Below are positions 37,364-50,362 of a stretch of DNA of 64,000 bases, piece after piece; within the stretch, counting starts at the first letter, position 1; the number at the start of each line of letters is the position of its first letter. The DNA is from Candidatus Woesearchaeota archaeon (GTDB taxonomy: Archaea; Nanobdellota; Nanobdellia; Woesearchaeales; JAGVYF01), in NCBI GenBank assembly GCA_041650315.1, contig JBAZLJ010000001.1, positions 141,237 to 205,236 on the forward strand, written 5' to 3'. Under the pieces are notes generated by a model. The model was not told where the DNA came from, searched no databases, and was given only the letters and a program-made list of their open reading frames with translations. The translations under genes and the position numbers were made by a program.

Positions 37364-40057
37364 GTGATGGCTGAAGAGAGCAAACTGAAGTCTTTGTTGA
37401 TCACCATAATCAATCTTATAGTAGCACCTTTCAAAGAGAAAAATATGGAGTTTGAGGTGCCTTTAACTGTTGCTCTTATCGCAGATCTCACTCCTTTTTT
37501 TAGTTTTATTTTTGGGATATCATTTTTAAAAGATTTATTCGGGTCTAGTTTCATCGCTTTCTTCCCTGATTATAATCAGATTATGTTTATGACAATATTG
37601 TTTTTTATCGCATGGGGATATTTTGGTGTTACTTATTCAATTTTGTTCTTTTTCAAATTTGTTCCTATTGTGTATATCTTTCCGATATTCACAACAATTA
37701 TCCTGACTAATTACCTCAATTCCATACAAGGCGAGGCATCTGATGCGGCTGGCAAATTCATCGGTATACTTGCTGGGGCGAAGAAGACTTATCCATTCTG
37801 GGCGATTGTTTTCAGAGTCATTGCCGGGATTATGCTTTGTGTGGTTGTTTTAGGCAATATGACAAATTCAGCGAATGTTCTGATGGGCAATTTGCCAGGT
37901 GTAATCGCGCAGCCTCTATATGAAAAAGCATTGCCTGAGTATCAGGCGCAGGTTATTACTTTGAGGCAGATGCTAGATCCTAGAACTGCTTATACTGCCG
38001 CAATTAACAGCATTAAGAAGACTGTTTCTTATCCAGTTACTTCAGTCAAATCGTGGTTCACTACACAAATCAATGTAGCGACTGGCGGATATTACATGGG
38101 TCAGGTCGATAAGTATGCCAATAAAGATCTTGGCGTTTATTTGCGTGAAGTGAAACCAACTGAAAGATGGTTCTATCTAGATGAATCCACTTATCAAGTT
38201 CCAGCTATCCAAATAATGGCGAGCGTTGAGGGTGCGGCGATTGATGTGGATGATTGCGAGCAATACTTGACCGAAGCTGAAACTGATTTTGAAATTAAGA
38301 AAAATCAGCTTACTGCTGAGCAGGAAAAAGCTTATTATGCAAACATATTGTATAAAAATAAAGGAGATTGCGAACTCAATCAAAAAGTCAAATTAGGTTG
38401 CGCAATCAGTAATAAAAGAATAAACGGCACAGTGAATCCTTCTACGATTTCTTTATTCGAAATACAGAATGGTTTTGCGATGCTTGAATGCAATTTTGAT
38501 AAGGCTAAACTTACAAAGCCTAGTTCTGAGCTTGTTGATATCACTGCAAATTTCCCCTTCGTCACAAAATCTTATTTGAAAACTTATTTCATGGATCTGA
38601 AAAGGTTCCGTGATATGAAACTTCAGAAACTTGATCCTTTGACCTATTATAAAATAACAGATACAAAACCTATTGCGGTTTATACCGGCGGTCCTGTTAT
38701 GATTGGGATTGGCATAAATGATGTGCTTCCTTTGACACTTATCACCGATATAGATTCTCCTGAACCAATTAGATCGTACAGCTTGGGTATAACCCTTGAT
38801 AATAAATGGACTGGCAAGATCGCTGAATTGATGGATATTGTAGTTGTGCTTCCACCACAACTTGAATTGAGATGTCCTCCTTATTTCGAAGCGGATCCTA
38901 TTGAAAGCAATAAATATATCTTGACTGATTTCAGCAAGAAGCAAGTAATAGCTGAGAAAGGGTTCAAAGAATCAAAGACCTATAATTGCAGGATACTGCC
39001 TAAAACAATTCTAGCTGCGCGTGAATTATTGAATAATGTTCCGTTAGCCACTAAGTATGTGCAAGTGACTGCATCCTATAAATATGAAATATCTGAGTCG
39101 ACTTCCATTACATTAAGGCAAGGTGATGGTATAAAATCTGATTTGAGTTCGGGTTGTACTGATACTTCTACACCTTGCGGGGATTATGACGGATGTTATT
39201 GCACGGAAGGATGTCCTGCAGGTAATTATTTGTCAGAAGTCAGTCGTGAGTATAATTGCAATGGAAAGTATGTGGCTATTCCTGAAGCTGTTATGACTAC
39301 TACGAGCGGTACTGGGACCGGAACGATTACTTCTGGCGAGAAACCTTATAGCTGGGATGCGGATACTACTGGTTTGAGTCCAGTATCTTCGATCACAGGA
39401 ACGACTGTGCCTAATGAACCTTCCTCTGGATTCAATTCTGCTCATGCTACAGAGTTTGCAGATGGGAGAACTTATGTCACTTCTTATTATACTCCAGTTA
39501 GAAGTGATTTTAGCGTTTGGTCTACTTTCAAACAAACAGCAGATTATAAGGATTATATGTACACAGATAGTAAAGGCAGAGAGTTATTGACTGATGCTTA
39601 CTTCACTAAAATAGGACGTGATAACTCCTTCAGATGGTGCGTAATTTCTCCGAAAGGATTCTATGAAGAAGTGCAATGCCAAGGTGAGGGTGTGGATAAT
39701 CAGAAAAAATTAGCTTATAGCTATGCGACAATCAGGATAGAGGATGAAACTGCTGGAGCTACTCCCTTATCCGGTACTGGTCTTTCCTATACCCCTAGAT
39801 ATACTTTGGCTGGACCAAGCAGCCTTCAAGGCAGAGAAATATACCTTTTCTTTGGCGTAAAGAGTTCTTGGAATGGATGTTATAAAGTTCAAGATACTGG
39901 AAGTGCAATCCAAGGCAATCATCTAGATCTTTTTAGAGGGTTTTCTAAAGAAACACATCCATCCCAATTCCCGAAAGCATATCTCTATCCTGGATGCGTA
40001 GCTGCATATGAAAAATTGAAAGCAGAACAAGCAGCTGCTGCGACGATAACACAATGA
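37364..40057 (+). CDS. Large polytopic membrane protein with Cys-rich extracellular region and C-terminal 3D/RlpA-like double-psi beta-barrel (DPBB) domain
   Basis: 897 aa; 4-5 N-terminal TM helices; CTDTSTPCGDYDGCYCTEGCPAGNY; C-terminal ...GREIYLFFG...NGCYKVQDTGSAIQGNHLDLFRGF (3D-domain DTG..I.G..iDlf signature). Confidence 0.65.
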   Translation: MMAEESKLKSLLITIINLIVAPFKEKNMEFEVPLTVALIADLTPFFSFIFGISFLKDLFGSSFIAFFPDYNQIMFMTILFFIAWGYFGVTYSILFFFKFVPIVYIFPIFTTIILTNYLNSIQGEASDAAGKFIGILAGAKKTYPFWAIVFRVIAGIMLCVVVLGNMTNSANVLMGNLPGVIAQPLYEKALPEYQAQVITLRQMLDPRTAYTAAINSIKKTVSYPVTSVKSWFTTQINVATGGYYMGQVDKYANKDLGVYLREVKPTERWFYLDESTYQVPAIQIMASVEGAAIDVDDCEQYLTEAETDFEIKKNQLTAEQEKAYYANILYKNKGDCELNQKVKLGCAISNKRINGTVNPSTISLFEIQNGFAMLECNFDKAKLTKPSSELVDITANFPFVTKSYLKTYFMDLKRFRDMKLQKLDPLTYYKITDTKPIAVYTGGPVMIGIGINDVLPLTLITDIDSPEPIRSYSLGITLDNKWTGKIAELMDIVVVLPPQLELRCPPYFEADPIESNKYILTDFSKKQVIAEKGFKESKTYNCRILPKTILAARELLNNVPLATKYVQVTASYKYEISESTSITLRQGDGIKSDLSSGCTDTSTPCGDYDGCYCTEGCPAGNYLSEVSREYNCNGKYVAIPEAVMTTTSGTGTGTITSGEKPYSWDADTTGLSPVSSITGTTVPNEPSSGFNSAHATEFADGRTYVTSYYTPVRSDFSVWSTFKQTADYKDYMYTDSKGRELLTDAYFTKIGRDNSFRWCVISPKGFYEEVQCQGEGVDNQKKLAYSYATIRIEDETAGATPLSGTGLSYTPRYTLAGPSSLQGREIYLFFGVKSSWNGCYKVQDTGSAIQGNHLDLFRGFSKETHPSQFPKAYLYPGCVAAYEKLKAEQAAAATITQ

Positions 40058-41031
40058 TCTACAAATATATAGCGATAATCTGTATCTTAATGTTCATATC
40101 TAGCTGTACTTCTACAAATCCTTCGTATATCGATATCAAGAAGATACGTACAGGCACTGACGGAATATCTATGGTGTTCCTTCCTCAGGGAGATATACCT
40201 ATGATGGAAGAAGAGAGCCGTACTGTTTCTGTGCAGTTGAAGAATGACGGCGCGTTCGATGTAGGGCATATGTATTTCCTGCTGGGCACTGAAAGCGATT
40301 ATGTGACTCTCGGAAAGACTTATTTCAACGGAGGAGAGGGTAAACAGGAAGACAAGCAAGGTCAGCTCACGACCTATCTGCCTGAGAATCTGTTCAAAGG
40401 CAAATCTTTGAAAACTGTTGTCGGTGATTATGCTGAATATGATGCGGAACTCACTACGAAAAAGATAACTCTTAGCAAATATCAAGACACTTTATTGAGC
40501 GCTATATTGTGCTATGAATATGGTACTGTAGCAGAAGATGAAGTGTGCATCCAGCCATCTGTTTCGGTGATCGGATTGCAAGCAGCATGCGTACCTAAAG
40601 ATTTGACTTTCTCTAGTCAAGGCGCGCCTCTTGTTGTGAATAAAGTCGAAGTGAAAAGCACATTGACAACTAACAAACAGATAAAGACCTTATTTAAAAT
40701 ATATTTCGAGAATAAAGGCATAGGCGATGTATTGAACTGGAATACCGGCAGATTGGTCTGTTCATCTAAACCTATGGGTGAAGAGAAGATATGGAATTAT
40801 TTCATAATGGCTGCTTTCCTTGGCGATAAGGAGATAGAATGCAGAGTGCCTAAGACTACAGTATTGGGAGATAGTTACTGGTTGGTAAGATTAAAGGGCG
40901 GGAAAGCTGAAGTCGTATGCGAATCGACAAGTCCTAGCGGAGTTGCTTATACAACGCCATTCACAGTCAAAGCATTTTATGATTATACACAGACATTGAC
41001 TAAGAAACTAACTATTGAACGTACTAGTTAG
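40054..41031 (+). CDS. Secreted lipobox-type protein, paralog 1 of 3
   Basis: 325 aa; signal peptide ending ...LMFISSCTST; shares C...FSSQGAPL...K..VK...K.L.KIYF.N.G.GDV with the next two genes. Confidence 0.6.
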   Translation: MIYKYIAIICILMFISSCTSTNPSYIDIKKIRTGTDGISMVFLPQGDIPMMEEESRTVSVQLKNDGAFDVGHMYFLLGTESDYVTLGKTYFNGGEGKQEDKQGQLTTYLPENLFKGKSLKTVVGDYAEYDAELTTKKITLSKYQDTLLSAILCYEYGTVAEDEVCIQPSVSVIGLQAACVPKDLTFSSQGAPLVVNKVEVKSTLTTNKQIKTLFKIYFENKGIGDVLNWNTGRLVCSSKPMGEEKIWNYFIMAAFLGDKEIECRVPKTTVLGDSYWLVRLKGGKAEVVCESTSPSGVAYTTPFTVKAFYDYTQTLTKKLTIERTS

Positions 41032-41089: not shown

Positions 41090-42304
41090 ATGAAAGTACC
41101 TAAACTATTGGCAGTATTATCGATTCTTATAGTCATTTTCAGTTCTGGATGCACAAGTTCCACAACACCTAATCTCGATGAAGAGATATATAGGGGCACT
41201 AGAGCATTGACAATGAATTTTTTGCAGGATGTGCCGCCTACTGAGACTTTTGCTAGCACAGGTGATGAGTATGAGATGGCTATCGAATTGAAGAATGAAG
41301 GCACTTATCCAGTATACGGCAAGATTTATTTCTCAGGTTTTGATCCTAACATAATCAGTTTCTCTAAACTAGGAATGGATCAAGGTTATTCTTTCCCATC
41401 ATCAAATTGCGGTTTTAAAGAGATAATTCCAAGATCTAAATTGAATCCTCCTGGCGGAGCTTGCGTTGAAGAATTCAAAGGCAAACTTAATCTTGATTCA
41501 ATCACTGATTCATATTCAGCGAATATTTTCGCTCAGGCAGTCTATAAATATATAACAGATGCTAGCATTGTCATGTGCGTAGATCCTGACGTGTATCACG
41601 TATCACCTGCGCAAAGAGCTTGCACAATGAGCGCGTTCTCATCAGGTTCCGGACAAGGGGCGCCTCTCGGAATTACTAAGATAGAACCGACTGCCATAGG
41701 TGGCGGCCAGATACTTTATAGAATTTATATCCAGAACATGGGCGAAGGAGAAGTTGTCGACTATATGAAAGCGCCTTATGAGCTGAAACCTAGCGATGTA
41801 GGTAAAGTTAGATACAGAATAGGAACGCCTGCGAATACAAGAACGGGTATTACGGTATCTGCTAACGGTGGATCAGTGTTTGTAGGCAATGCAATTGCTG
41901 ATATAACTGGCAGAGCTATCGGATTGTCTTATACTGATTCTAATTTCAGGATAAATTTCAATCCTAAGTCAAACTATGCATATTCTGAGGATGTAATCAG
42001 ATTGAACAACGGCCAAGGAGTAATCACTAAGGTCATCGATTACAGCGGAAATGCTTATGCATTCCAGACTCCTCTGCAGATAACATTGGAATATGGATAT
42101 ATGCATGCGGTCCAGAAGAATATAGAGATAGTCAATATCGATCAATATAATTCTGCATACGGCGCCGGTGGTATCAGATTCGTTTATGATAAGAACGGCA
42201 AGAGAGTAGAATTGAATCCAGACGGCTCTGTGAGATATAGGGATGATGATTTCCAGATAGATCTCCCTTCAGATACATTGGATCTGAATAATCTTTTCAA
42301 ATAA
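41090..42304 (+). CDS. Secreted lipobox-type protein, paralog 2 of 3
   Basis: 404 aa; SP ...VIFSSGCTSS; motif CTMSAFSSGSGQGAPLGITKIE...ILYRIYIQNMGEGEV. Confidence 0.6.
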   Translation: MKVPKLLAVLSILIVIFSSGCTSSTTPNLDEEIYRGTRALTMNFLQDVPPTETFASTGDEYEMAIELKNEGTYPVYGKIYFSGFDPNIISFSKLGMDQGYSFPSSNCGFKEIIPRSKLNPPGGACVEEFKGKLNLDSITDSYSANIFAQAVYKYITDASIVMCVDPDVYHVSPAQRACTMSAFSSGSGQGAPLGITKIEPTAIGGGQILYRIYIQNMGEGEVVDYMKAPYELKPSDVGKVRYRIGTPANTRTGITVSANGGSVFVGNAIADITGRAIGLSYTDSNFRINFNPKSNYAYSEDVIRLNNGQGVITKVIDYSGNAYAFQTPLQITLEYGYMHAVQKNIEIVNIDQYNSAYGAGGIRFVYDKNGKRVELNPDGSVRYRDDDFQIDLPSDTLDLNNLFK

Positions 42305-42316
42305 GGAGGTATCATA

Positions 42317-43285
42317 ATGAATAAAATAATCACATTAATTGTTATTGCGATGATGGTGTGCATGTCAGGATGCACCGGTTCTAAAACGCCTACTAAAGCA
42401 GCAGTCACGCCTTTCATTGGCGGAAGCGATGCTTTGAAAGTAAGCTTTGTCGAAGGAACTCCACCTGCACAAATATATGACTCAGGCAGTTCAGCGTTTG
42501 CTATCGGTCTTAAATTGGATAATGTAGGTGAGCATACTGTATTAGCTACTGATGGTTATGTGGAGATTCTTGGTTTGAATGCGCAAGACTTTGGTCTTGG
42601 TTCACAAGTTGATTTGAAAAAATCTTTTGTCTCTGATATCAGAGGCGCTAAAAAGAATCTTGACGGCACCACACTTGAAGGCGATTCAGTCTATATGGAT
42701 TTCTCGGATATGAAATATCTTCCAGATCTAAAAGGAGATGTTGAATTCAAGTTCCGTGCTAATCTATGTTATGATTATGTGACGCAGACAAGTTCAAAGA
42801 TTTGCTTGAACAAGAATCCTTTAGCAGGTCTTGGAGAAGCAATTTGCAAAGTTTCTGCTGATAAAACAGTCTATAATTCAGGCGGCCCTATTCAAATTGT
42901 GAAAGTCAAGGAAAGCCCTCTAGGCAATAACAAAATTCAATTGCTTTTCGAGATTGGACATAAAGGTTCTGCAAACAATCTGTTCTATAAAATGGGCACT
43001 GCTTGCGATGATGCATTGACAAATACAGACAGATATAAAGTGCTTGTGAAAGTCACATCTGATGTGAATGGTGCAACTGCGCAATGTTCAGGTCTTGAAT
43101 CTGCAGTTAGCGGGTCTGAAGGCTATGTCACATTGTTCGGCGGCAAGAACAGAGCAATTACTTGCGTGCTTGACTTAGCGGCTGTTGATAGTGTCTACGA
43201 GGACTTATTCAATGTCGATCTGTATTACAGATATAATCAATTCCTTGATAAGACAATAGAAATACAGGATACTGGCAGCAGTTAA
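42317..43285 (+). CDS. Secreted lipobox-type protein, paralog 3 of 3
   Basis: 322 aa; SP ...VCMSGCTGS; motif CKVSADKTVYNSGGPIQIVKVKE...IQLLFEIGHKGSANN. Confidence 0.6.
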   Translation: MNKIITLIVIAMMVCMSGCTGSKTPTKAAVTPFIGGSDALKVSFVEGTPPAQIYDSGSSAFAIGLKLDNVGEHTVLATDGYVEILGLNAQDFGLGSQVDLKKSFVSDIRGAKKNLDGTTLEGDSVYMDFSDMKYLPDLKGDVEFKFRANLCYDYVTQTSSKICLNKNPLAGLGEAICKVSADKTVYNSGGPIQIVKVKESPLGNNKIQLLFEIGHKGSANNLFYKMGTACDDALTNTDRYKVLVKVTSDVNGATAQCSGLESAVSGSEGYVTLFGGKNRAITCVLDLAAVDSVYEDLFNVDLYYRYNQFLDKTIEIQDTGSS

Positions 43286-47377: not shown

Positions 47378-48271
47378 CTATTTAGCTTTAATACCAATTT
47401 TTTCGTTCAGTAACACTTTGTTTTGGCATTCGCCTTTCAGGCTGCAGGCATTGCATTTGTTCTCAGAATGAATTGGTTCAGGTATTTCACTTGAATCCAA
47501 GGTTTCTTTTACTTTTTTTATTAACGCTAGGATGTCTTGCTTCAAGAAAGGGTTCATTATGACATCGTATTTGATGTCTTCGTTAAGGTAATGGATGTAT
47601 CCGCCTTTGACTTCAAGGCCGTATTTCTCTTCTAGAAGGAGCATGTATGCCGCTAATTGTATCCTGTGACCCTCCCATAATGTGTCTGTCGGCGCTTTGC
47701 CTGTCTTTAATTCGGCGGGTATAATGTTGCCTTTGTAGATCTCTACTCTATCTATGACTCCCATTAGTTCGAGTTTTTGGGATTCAACCCTTACTTCAGA
47801 TTCTATTTTAGGCGTAAGCTTTTCCCATAATTGTTCGCCTAGAAGGTTATTTTCTTTGATGAATTCGCAGATATTCTGGGATCTGAACTTGTACTCTTTT
47901 TCCATAAACGGCCAGATTGTCTTGAAAGTCTCGCCTAGATCAAGATTCACATCTTTTAGTGAAGGTTTGAACTTGATAATGGATTCTCTTACAGTCAGAG
48001 AATATTTTTGCTTGTAATGATTCTGAATAGTGTTTATGTTCTGGTCTTTTATTGATAGGACTATGCTTTTCTCCATCTTATTGATTTTGTCATAGATGTC
48101 ATGCCTTAATGAGCCGATGATTGTGGCTTCCCTTGGCGGTTCGATGAATCCTAATACTTTAGTAAGATAGAGTTTTCTAGGGCAATATAGGTAGCTGGTC
48201 AGTGCAGTTACGCTTAGCATAGATTTTATGTGGGGAATGGAGTATATAAATCTCACGGGTGACCAGTGCAC
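47378..48271 (-). CDS. Cas4-like PD-(D/E)xK nuclease (DUF83) with Fe-S cysteine cluster, stand-alone
   Basis: 297 aa; N-terminal YLYCPRKLYL, IGSLRHD, GVIDRVE, ELKTGK, QLAAYMLLLE, C-terminal CNACSLKGEC. Confidence 0.65.
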   Translation of the reverse strand: MHWSPVRFIYSIPHIKSMLSVTALTSYLYCPRKLYLTKVLGFIEPPREATIIGSLRHDIYDKINKMEKSIVLSIKDQNINTIQNHYKQKYSLTVRESIIKFKPSLKDVNLDLGETFKTIWPFMEKEYKFRSQNICEFIKENNLLGEQLWEKLTPKIESEVRVESQKLELMGVIDRVEIYKGNIIPAELKTGKAPTDTLWEGHRIQLAAYMLLLEEKYGLEVKGGYIHYLNEDIKYDVIMNPFLKQDILALIKKVKETLDSSEIPEPIHSENKCNACSLKGECQNKVLLNEKIGIKAK

Positions 48272-48319
48272 TATGGAGGATGTCCAGTGCTACTCTAATT
48301 GTATTATTACTCTCTATAA

Positions 48320-49693
48320 ATGCTTATAAAACGACTTTTTGTTTTCGAGTGCATGAGATGGTGGTTATTGGTTTTATTGGTTTTAATGCCGTTTGCTTGC
48401 GCTGAGACTTATTTCTCAGAAGTGATGTATAATCCATTGGGATCTGATACTGGTTTTGAATGGGTTGAGGTTTATAGTAATGATTCTTTAGAGATTACTT
48501 CTTGTAAGTTTTTGGAAGCTGGTGTGAATCACGGCATTACTTTGAGTTCTAATGGTACTTCATCTTATTTTGTGATTGCGGACGTGCCTTCAAAGTTCTT
48601 GGGGAACTATAGCTATAATGGCACTTTGTATGATTCAGCATTCTCTTTGTCTAATACTGGCGAGGCTTTGAGTTTTGTTTGTGATGGCATTACTATCGCT
48701 TTTGTGAATTATACGGATATTGCTCTGGAAGGCGATACTTTGCAGTTCATTTCATCTGAGTGGGTTTCGGGTGTTGCATCTCCGGGTTATTTGGGCTTAA
48801 AGACTGAAGTACCAAACGAAACATTGCCGGAAGCTGTGAACGAATCAGTTTCTTTCATTAAGATTGATAAGGTTGATGCGAATGTAACGTTTGGTTCAGT
48901 TCTGGATGTGAAGTTCACTGCACATAAAGGCGATACTTCGAAGTATGCCGTTTATGTGTGGGTGGATGGCGCGAGCGACAAATCGCAGGTAAATATGTAT
49001 ACCAAACTTTCAGATGGCACTTTCACTATCCCTGTGCAATTGCGCCCTAATTGCGATGGCCGCTACGATGAAGGCGATTATACTTTACGAATATCTGGTC
49101 TTGGTGTTGAAGTGAATGCTTCTGTGCATGTGTCTGGAATCAATACTAAGCTGTGCAAGGTTGTTGAGAAGACTGTGACGAAGACAACCGGTTCTTCTTG
49201 TCCCGCTACTTCTAGCTTCGAGTATTCTCTTGTAGGTTATCCTACAGCAGTTCTTGTCGGTTTGGAATTCAAGACGTTGGTTAAGATTGTGAATAATTAC
49301 GATTATGAGATTCCTGTGAAAGTCTGGAGTTATGTGTATCGCGGTTCGAAGACGTATTCCGGCGAACGCGAAGAGAACATGATTTCTTTCGATCTCGATT
49401 CTGGCGATGAGAAGATTATCGAATTGAAGAATACTGTTGAAGATGCTTTATCTGGCGATTACAAGCTTAAAGTCTTAATCAATAAGAAGGATCAGAAGAC
49501 TAATCAGGAACTGACTTCGGACATTTCTATTTTCGCAATACCTGTCGCGGAGAATAAGACTTGCGCAGTGTGTCCGACGTGTTCTTCTGCGGAAAAATCG
49601 GTTTCGAAAGAGATTGTCATGTCTGGCGCGAAAGCGGGCTTTGGTTATGAGAATGTCGCAAGCGATGTTATTTCTGATGGAATTGTGTACTAG
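48320..49693 (+). CDS. Secreted protein with N-terminal lamin-tail domain (LTD); in-frame TAG followed by a C-terminal TM anchor
   Basis: 457 aa; signal peptide then FSEVMYNPLGSDTGFEWVEVYSND (LTD motif); the frame is open past the TAG for 33 more codons (49694-49795). Confidence 0.6.
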   Translation: MLIKRLFVFECMRWWLLVLLVLMPFACAETYFSEVMYNPLGSDTGFEWVEVYSNDSLEITSCKFLEAGVNHGITLSSNGTSSYFVIADVPSKFLGNYSYNGTLYDSAFSLSNTGEALSFVCDGITIAFVNYTDIALEGDTLQFISSEWVSGVASPGYLGLKTEVPNETLPEAVNESVSFIKIDKVDANVTFGSVLDVKFTAHKGDTSKYAVYVWVDGASDKSQVNMYTKLSDGTFTIPVQLRPNCDGRYDEGDYTLRISGLGVEVNASVHVSGINTKLCKVVEKTVTKTTGSSCPATSSFEYSLVGYPTAVLVGLEFKTLVKIVNNYDYEIPVKVWSYVYRGSKTYSGEREENMISFDLDSGDEKIIELKNTVEDALSGDYKLKVLINKKDQKTNQELTSDISIFAIPVAENKTCAVCPTCSSAEKSVSKEIVMSGAKAGFGYENVASDVISDGIVY

Positions 49694-49795
49694 TCGGACG
49701 CATTACTGCAGAAGAAAGCTGTGCCAATGTTCCTGAGCTTGGTAGGGTTGCTGGGCGTGGGTTTGTTCAAGTATAAGTTTGAAGAAGGCGAATAA
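49694..49795 (+). other. In-frame extension downstream of the TAG stop of the LTD protein, encoding a TM anchor (SDALLQKKAVPMFLSLVGLLGVGLFKYKFEEGE)
   Basis: Same frame as the upstream CDS; hydrophobic helix plus charged tail; GC-richer than the background. Confidence 0.4.
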
Positions 49796-49798
49796 ATT

Positions 49799-50362
49799 TT
49801 ATTGCACCATGCCGAATTTCTTATTCTTCTTTGTCATCTTGACGAAGTTGTCCAATCTGTTCTGGAAGATTCTCTTGCCTTGAGCCCTTGAATGCTCAAT
49901 ATAACCAATACGTACTCTTTTGTAGCCGTCTGAGAAGTTTTGGAAATGTTTCCATGCTTCTTTATCCGCTTTCAACGCTTTGAGGATATCTTTGGCGATG
50001 ATGAATTTTTCATCTTTATCCTTATCGAATGCGTGCTTCACTGCTTCGAGCCCTATCTTCGTCATCCTTTTGTTCTTAATTAGCCTGCGGATGCGTTCTT
50101 TGTTCATTTCCGAGAGCACGCTTGTCGGTTTCCTTGGCGTGAATCTCTGCGCGAACTTTTCGTCATCAATTCTTTTTACGATGCTGTCAATCCAGCCATA
50201 ATTCAACGCTTCTTCCACTGCATCATTGTACGGGATCCTGGGCTTGTTGCTGGATTTCCGGTAATATATCAGCCAGATACATTTCTCTTTCTTAGAATTG
50301 TTCTTTAGCCATGAGCGCCATTGTGTTCTGTTGGTGACATACAGCGTTTTGCCTATTTCCAT
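49799..50362 (-). CDS. YdeI/OmpD-associated family protein (DUF1801/DUF1905-like)
   Basis: 187 aa; NYGWIDSIVKRIDDEKFAQRFTPRKPTSVLSEMNKERIRRL. Confidence 0.6.
   Translation of the reverse strand: MEIGKTLYVTNRTQWRSWLKNNSKKEKCIWLIYYRKSSNKPRIPYNDAVEEALNYGWIDSIVKRIDDEKFAQRFTPRKPTSVLSEMNKERIRRLIKNKRMTKIGLEAVKHAFDKDKDEKFIIAKDILKALKADKEAWKHFQNFSDGYKRVRIGYIEHSRAQGKRIFQNRLDNFVKMTKKNKKFGMVQ

Follow-up and report, generated by a model that had tools for sequence, protein, structure and literature searches.

A premature stop codon, probably a recent nonsense allele, separates a woesearchaeal surface protein from its predicted membrane anchor

The deposited 446-aa protein analyzed here is a truncated form of a 480-aa protein with a predicted membrane anchor, and its database entry ought to carry a flag for a possible pseudogene or an assembly variant. 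Sequence comparison establishes that the stop is derived, that the tail encoded beyond it is homologous to the C-termini of intact proteins, and that this tail is undecayed. The reading that we favor, and judge to be probable, is that of a real nonsense allele, likely segregating, which arose by a single multi-nucleotide mutation. Whether the allele is real or an artefact, termination at the derived stop is ordinary and involves no special decoding.

The truncated gene and its in-frame extension

In the window, i.e., the whole 64-kb stretch of DNA under analysis, an ORF at 48320..49693 (+) encodes 457 aa. Its C-terminus reads ...SDGIVY, and the TAG stop occupies 49691-49693. Beyond it, the frame stays open for 33 codons (49694-49792), which encode SDALLQKKAVPMFLSLVGLLGVGLFKYKFEEGE, up to a TAA at 49793-49795. 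The ORF and translation coordinates confirm what the earlier note had described, a TAG-ended ORF followed in frame by a hydrophobic helix and a charged tail. The features of the locus are as follows.

48353..49693, + strand: truncated CDS of 446 aa, ending at the premature TAG
48353..48403, + strand: predicted Sec signal peptide, MRWWLLVLLVLMPFACA (from the sequence; cleavage probably after ACA; residues 2-11 are helical in the model)
48407..48775, + strand: N-terminal beta-sandwich, lamin-tail-like, residues 19-141 counted from the Met at 48353 (AlphaFold2, pLDDT >90)
48854..49141, + strand: predicted second beta-sandwich, Ig-like, residues 168-263 (AlphaFold2; Foldseek; weak Golvesin_C match)
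49217..49534, + strand: predicted third beta-sandwich, residues 289-394, which holds WSYVYRGSKxYSGERE (AlphaFold2)
49550..49690, + strand: probably flexible stalk with CAVCPTC, ending in ...GIVY, residues 400-448 (pLDDT <50)
49684, + strand: linked synonymous difference, ATT (Ile) in the window and ATC in four other assemblies
49691..49693, + strand: premature stop TAG, GAG (Glu) in four other assemblies; the Glu is that of the V-Y-E-S motif
49694..49795, + strand: orphaned ancestral 3' end, 33 codons plus the original TAA (identity with intact alleles)
49718..49768, + strand: predicted transmembrane segment, AVPMFLSLVGLLGVGLF (from the sequence; KK outside, KYK-FEEGE on the cytoplasmic side)

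Translation from the ATG at 48353 gives 446 aa and from the ATG at 48320, 457 aa. The 446-aa form matches exactly NCBI MFA5141504.1 (P0075; in NCBI and IMG), a "hypothetical protein" of a Ca. Woesearchaeota MAG. The ATG at 48353 is thus the annotated start, and it is more likely than 48320 to be the one used, as it yields a canonical signal peptide, placed directly before ETYF. At 48324-48331, some 26 nt before ATG 48353, the window reads TTATAAAA, and that ATG lacks a Shine-Dalgarno motif. This combination fits an archaeal TATA box with a leaderless transcript; it argues for 48353, and against 48320, as the true start.

Several window ORFs have in-frame extensions of at least 30 codons after their stops, and in a window of 38.6% GC the length of the extension alone is unremarkable. 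That is, the extension is judged to be non-random because it is homologous to intact C-termini, not because of its length. When a profile of the family's C-terminal tails is run over the window's 958 stop-to-stop segments, the extension is the only match (E 1.5e-7). The match holds at E 8e-4 once the allele itself is left out of the profile; when the five closest orthologues are left out as well, the extension is no longer matched.

Intact alleles in other assemblies

A search with the fused product found P0001, a 480-aa protein that is 100% identical to the window protein and reads ...GIVY-E-SDALLQKK... through to ...FEEGE. The 90%-identity cluster of P0001 has four sequences, the truncated 446-aa protein (NCBI and IMG) and three intact forms. 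The intact forms, P0001 (480 aa), P0076 (491 aa), and P0077 (469 aa), come from ENA, Logan, and JGI assemblies, and all read ...VYESDALLQKK... to ...FEEGE. Across the stop position, the intact peptide is ...GIVYESDALLQK.

At the DNA level, four other assemblies of the same species have ATC GTG TAC GAG where the window has ATT GTG TAC TAG. These GAG-bearing assemblies are ERZ27247363 (in a 1,007,146-bp contig), Logan SRR8542065, ERZ27249449, and JGI 3300014208. The last is from the GW1 groundwater well at a municipal landfill in Southern Ontario, sequenced as Illumina 2x150 reads (PMC9723747). The assemblies represent two strains, one essentially the window's own and the other about 96.5% identical to it in neighboring genes. 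Window positions 1-59,795 were compared with the ERZ27247363 contig in three tiles (1-21,312, 21,370-42,710, and 38,353-59,795), and only two bases differ: 49684 (T in the window vs C) and 49691 (T vs G). That contig, k141_3083672, matches the window's 615-kb source contig over this entire span bar the two bases; it is possibly an almost complete genome of the Woesearchaeota population in question and would make the better reference.

Since the same-species assemblies all carry GAG, GAG is ancestral and TAG derived. The orphaned 33 codons show no decay and are 100% identical to those of the intact alleles. The near-identity of the window to its relatives, together with the undecayed tail, means that the change is either very recent or not biological.

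More distant relatives agree. In those at 36–51% identity (P0002–P0004, P0008, and P0010), the tail is fused to the protein and the stop position is occupied by E or Q. The consensus of these close-relative tails is VY(E/Q)S(D/T)..QKK.xP..L...GLL..GLF followed by basic residues. The question raised in the earlier note, whether the anchor is fused in relatives, is thus answered in the affirmative, by GAG and a continuous ORF in the same-species assemblies and by the tail in 56 of 61 relatives. The first explanation offered there, a nonsense mutation or a sequencing error splitting an anchored surface protein, is supported both by the GAG of the four assemblies and by the fused relatives.

A single event or an assembly artefact

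The two differing sites lie 7 bp apart. Given two differences in the compared span, the chance that they would fall within 7 bp of one another is about 2 x 7 / 59,795 = 2e-4. The spacing therefore indicates that they represent one event or one haplotype.

Under the reading that we favor, one recent event would have changed ATC to ATT, which is silent, and GAG to TAG. The conserved Glu would become a stop, translation would end at ...GIVY, and the anchor codons would be left as an untouched remnant. The truncated product would keep its three folded domains and lack the anchor, so that it would presumably be exported and released instead of being held at the membrane. Such a loss of anchoring would amount to a loss or a change of function. 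If the allele is real, it exemplifies how surface anchoring can be lost within a population of an episymbiont-type archaeon, in which surface proteins mediate contact with the host.

On a less likely reading, the organism has ATC...GAG, and the contig carries a local consensus error or follows a wrong branch of the assembly graph; the gene would in that case be unbroken, and its product anchored. G/T confusion is a common type of Illumina error. The window is otherwise identical to another assembly over 59.8 kb, bar the two nearby sites, and three other assemblies of the same strain or species, made with other assemblers or from other samples, have GAG. For the related JGI sample, the underlying data are short Illumina reads (PMC9723747). 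Against an artefact, two errors 7 bp apart would need to dominate the reads inside a 615-kb contig, random errors seldom reach the consensus, and the site has no homopolymer, repeat, or strong hairpin to cause a systematic error. The length of the contig implies decent coverage. In addition, the two-base haplotype fits inside a single k-mer bubble. An assembler should emit the pair only if several reads carry both bases, which would favor a real variant over random error.

The TAG haplotype is found in one deposited assembly only, i.e., the NCBI MAG and its IMG source. Exact-pattern scans of metagenome and genome contig collections gave 0 matches, both for a degenerate pattern covering the two haplotypes and for an invariant adjacent 46-mer; the collections evidently lack the locus and lend independent support to neither haplotype. 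A template for both substitutions was also sought, as in gene conversion, a quasi-palindrome, or a DGR-like mechanism. This candidate was rejected, as the 19-mer has no further copy in the window even when 3 mismatches are allowed. A search for inverted and direct repeats gave none of relevance, and no reverse transcriptase is found among the annotated neighbors.

Termination at the TAG codon

Three further possibilities in the earlier note were programmed readthrough of the TAG, phase variation, and separate translation of the anchor as a 22-aa peptide. The evidence supports none of them.

Programmed readthrough or recoding, by pyrrolysine or a suppressor tRNA, would produce secreted and anchored isoforms from one gene. 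The downstream frame is indeed open and encodes a perfect anchor, and some low-level natural readthrough is possible at any stop codon. We nevertheless regard a programmed event as very improbable. The stop is missing from otherwise identical genomes, which means that it is not an evolved feature, and relatives have E or Q in its place, with E in 37/56 tails. TAG also ends the genes for aIF5B, the RFC small subunit, SecD, DnaG, and Topo VI-A at normal lengths, which bears out the earlier statement, made from dnaG, that TAG is a genuine stop elsewhere and that genome-wide recoding is unlikely. Overall, TAG terminates 16 of the 74 window ORFs of at least 100 aa, and TAG, TAA, and TGA all end conserved window genes. 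The only tRNA in the 64-kb window is tRNA-Cys; that is, there is no tRNA-CUA there. No Pyl genes are present among the annotated genes at positions 1-59,795. A search of Rfam gave only a chance snoRNA match (19 bits vs 90), and the 116 nt from the stop onward fold no better than shuffled sequences (z = -0.13), so that no stable fold follows the stop. The finding therefore gives no reason to infer that stop codons are recoded in DPANN archaea.

Phase variation often acts on surface proteins, and both states of the site, TAG and GAG, are present in public assemblies. A reversible ON/OFF switch of surface anchoring is nonetheless hardly credible here. The site and its surroundings contain no simple-sequence repeat or homopolymer, and neither an inverted-repeat switch nor a donor copy is found there. 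The mutated 19-mer occurs once in the window, even with 3 mismatches allowed, and base substitution does not provide a reversible switch.

Equally hard to credit is translation of the tail alone, from GTG 49721 or ATG 49727, as a membrane peptide of 22–24 aa. A 24-aa ORF is present at 49721..49795, but no GGAGG-type ribosome-binding site is found upstream of it, whereas AAGGAGG precedes the one internal gene start that was inspected. The tail is identical to that of the intact gene, an unchanged ancestral sequence with no independent evolution, and it never occurs as a separate gene in family members.

Architecture of the protein

An AlphaFold2 model of the intact allele has a mean pLDDT of 82. 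In the model, residues 449–478 form a single long helix, the only one, and the stop falls two residues before it, after three confidently predicted beta-sandwich domains. The intact product thus has the predicted layout of a type I surface protein, with a signal peptide, a lamin-tail-like domain, two Ig-like domains, a flexible Cys-containing stalk, and a conserved V-Y-E-S...K-K..P motif next to the membrane, followed by the TM helix and a few cytoplasmic residues, as judged from the sequence and the model.

The assignment of the protein to the lamin-tail-domain family, made in the earlier note, needs to be qualified. For the protein itself the assignment is weak, with a PF00932 score of 14.5 bits where the cut-off is 34.3, and the intact allele has no PF00932 match at E <= 0.01. 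In the homologues, the domain is clear: PF00932 scores 51–142 bits, and most matches have a precomputed PF00932 assignment. The model places a beta-sandwich where PF00932 aligns. Foldseek against the PDB returns generic tandem Ig/FnIII-like arrays, such as RbmA, and gives no functional lead. The most conserved motif of the family, WSYVYRGSKxYSGERE, is in the third domain.

At the start of the stalk, CAVCPTC is encoded at 49564-49584, and P0002, P0003, P0004, and P0008 have KCPVCxC at the same place. This Cys motif may be a metal-binding, disulfide, or lipidation site.

The family and its C-terminal module

The tail, at 49676-49795 in the window, belongs to a module that ends 56 of the 61 family members, (V/I)-Y-E-S-x3-K-A-K-x-L-x-P-x-F followed by a TM helix and K/R-K/R. 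Of the 56 tails, 50 have the Y of this motif, 37 the E, and 52 the S. The window TAG replaces the Glu of this "YES" motif. The window tail is a sub-variant, QKK..P...GLL..GLFKYK-FEEGE, and the general profile recognizes it only when close orthologues are included.

A profile of 41 tails was searched exhaustively against 1.84 billion representative proteins; an earlier word-indexed search with a 36-position tail profile had been too insensitive and gave one match. At E <= 0.001, the exhaustive search matched 287 representative clusters. All of the 150 matches listed of these 287 lie near the C-terminal end of the protein. The module is mostly carried by one family, as the body of that family is also matched in 114 of 140 new tail carriers and the remainder are mostly fragments. 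At least one carrier lies outside the family, a ComEA-like HHH_3 protein (P0156, 63.9 bits), and one family member, P0006, also has a staphylococcal-nuclease domain.

Four different tails gave no match to Pfam or NCBIfam at E <= 10. The module is uncatalogued in these databases and is a candidate addition to them, which may be of some wider value. The tail profile found no second carrier in the 64-kb window, and no archaeosortase- or sortase-like gene is present among the annotated genes in the approximately 60 kb examined.

A bolder proposal, which we think improbable, is that the module is not a passive anchor but an undescribed Woesearchaeota C-terminal sorting or processing signal like PGF-CTERM. 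The TAG allele would then be a natural, pre-cleaved, shed variant of a surface adhesin or DNA-binding protein, segregating in the population. As part of this proposal, the presence of the module on LTD, SNase-containing, and ComEA-like proteins would hint at surface capture of extracellular DNA by these nucleotide-auxotrophic symbionts. If this is so, the TAG ends the protein almost exactly at the would-be processing cut.

Strain variation at the locus and in neighboring genes

Between the two strains, the mature part of the surface protein is nearly identical, with one SNP at 48886 in addition to the stop-site pair (window 48306-49996 vs L003/L004). The adjoining Cas4-like gene, at 47378..48271, is about 3.5% different between the same two strains. 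Most of the variation is in the signal-peptide codons at 48348-48394, where there are several substitutions as well as 3-nt indels. The intergenic region upstream of the surface-protein gene has an indel of more than 50 bp. The near-identity of the mature gene body suggests strong constraint or a recent exchange of the gene body.

Elsewhere in the window, the ORFs at 41090-42304 and 42317-43285 (+) lie in the same frame, separated by TAA and 12 nt. They were considered as a second split gene (41090..43285), which was rejected, as the two proved to be paralogues in tandem (21% identity, E 8e-12). A signal peptide and an SGCT lipobox-like motif are present in both, and the second has an AAGGAGG ribosome-binding site before it. 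Upstream of this pair, 37364-40057 (+) encodes an 897-aa protein with no confident domain and a weak 3D-domain match; its counterpart in the second strain has 946 aa. The segment at 39634-40732 is 88.9% identical between the strains over about 1.1 kb, vs about 96.5% for the flanking genes. The 897-aa protein is locally hypervariable and probably surface-exposed.

Comparison with known systems

No described family includes the two central domains of the window protein or its tail. The N-terminal part of the protein resembles the prokaryotic PF00932 extracellular proteins, including nucleases of the ExeM/NucH type, in having an LTD-like beta-sandwich at the N-terminus and in being predicted to be secreted. 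Unlike the ExeM/NucH-type nucleases, it has no catalytic domain, and its LTD score is below the Pfam threshold.

The known archaeosortase and exosortase signals (PGF-CTERM, PEF-CTERM, and VPXXXP-CTERM) consist of a motif, a TM helix, and a basic cluster (Haft et al. 2012; PMC6098224). The module described here is similar in that a short motif at the extreme C-terminus, with a Pro just before the helix (here often P-x-F), is followed by a TM helix and a basic end, on proteins predicted to be secreted by the Sec pathway. It differs in that it matches no NCBIfam CTERM model and in that no archaeosortase gene is seen among the annotated genes of the approximately 60 kb examined. Its carriers also belong mostly to a single protein family, and the window tail ends in acidic residues (KYKFEEGE) and not in a pure basic cluster. 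The module is thus at most a candidate member of this class.

For the truncation itself, a parallel is found in the premature-stop (PMSC) alleles of internalin A of Listeria monocytogenes. In these alleles, a nonsense substitution upstream of the anchoring region causes the protein to be secreted rather than displayed, a phenotype that has been shown experimentally. InlA belongs to a Gram-positive bacterium and is anchored through an LPXTG/sortase signal; its premature-stop alleles segregate among otherwise near-identical strains. The present case differs from InlA in that the organism is an uncultured DPANN archaeon and the predicted anchor is a TM helix with an uncharacterized motif. By analogy, the two cases would share the same essentials: a single nonsense substitution keeps the folded ectodomain and removes the anchor.
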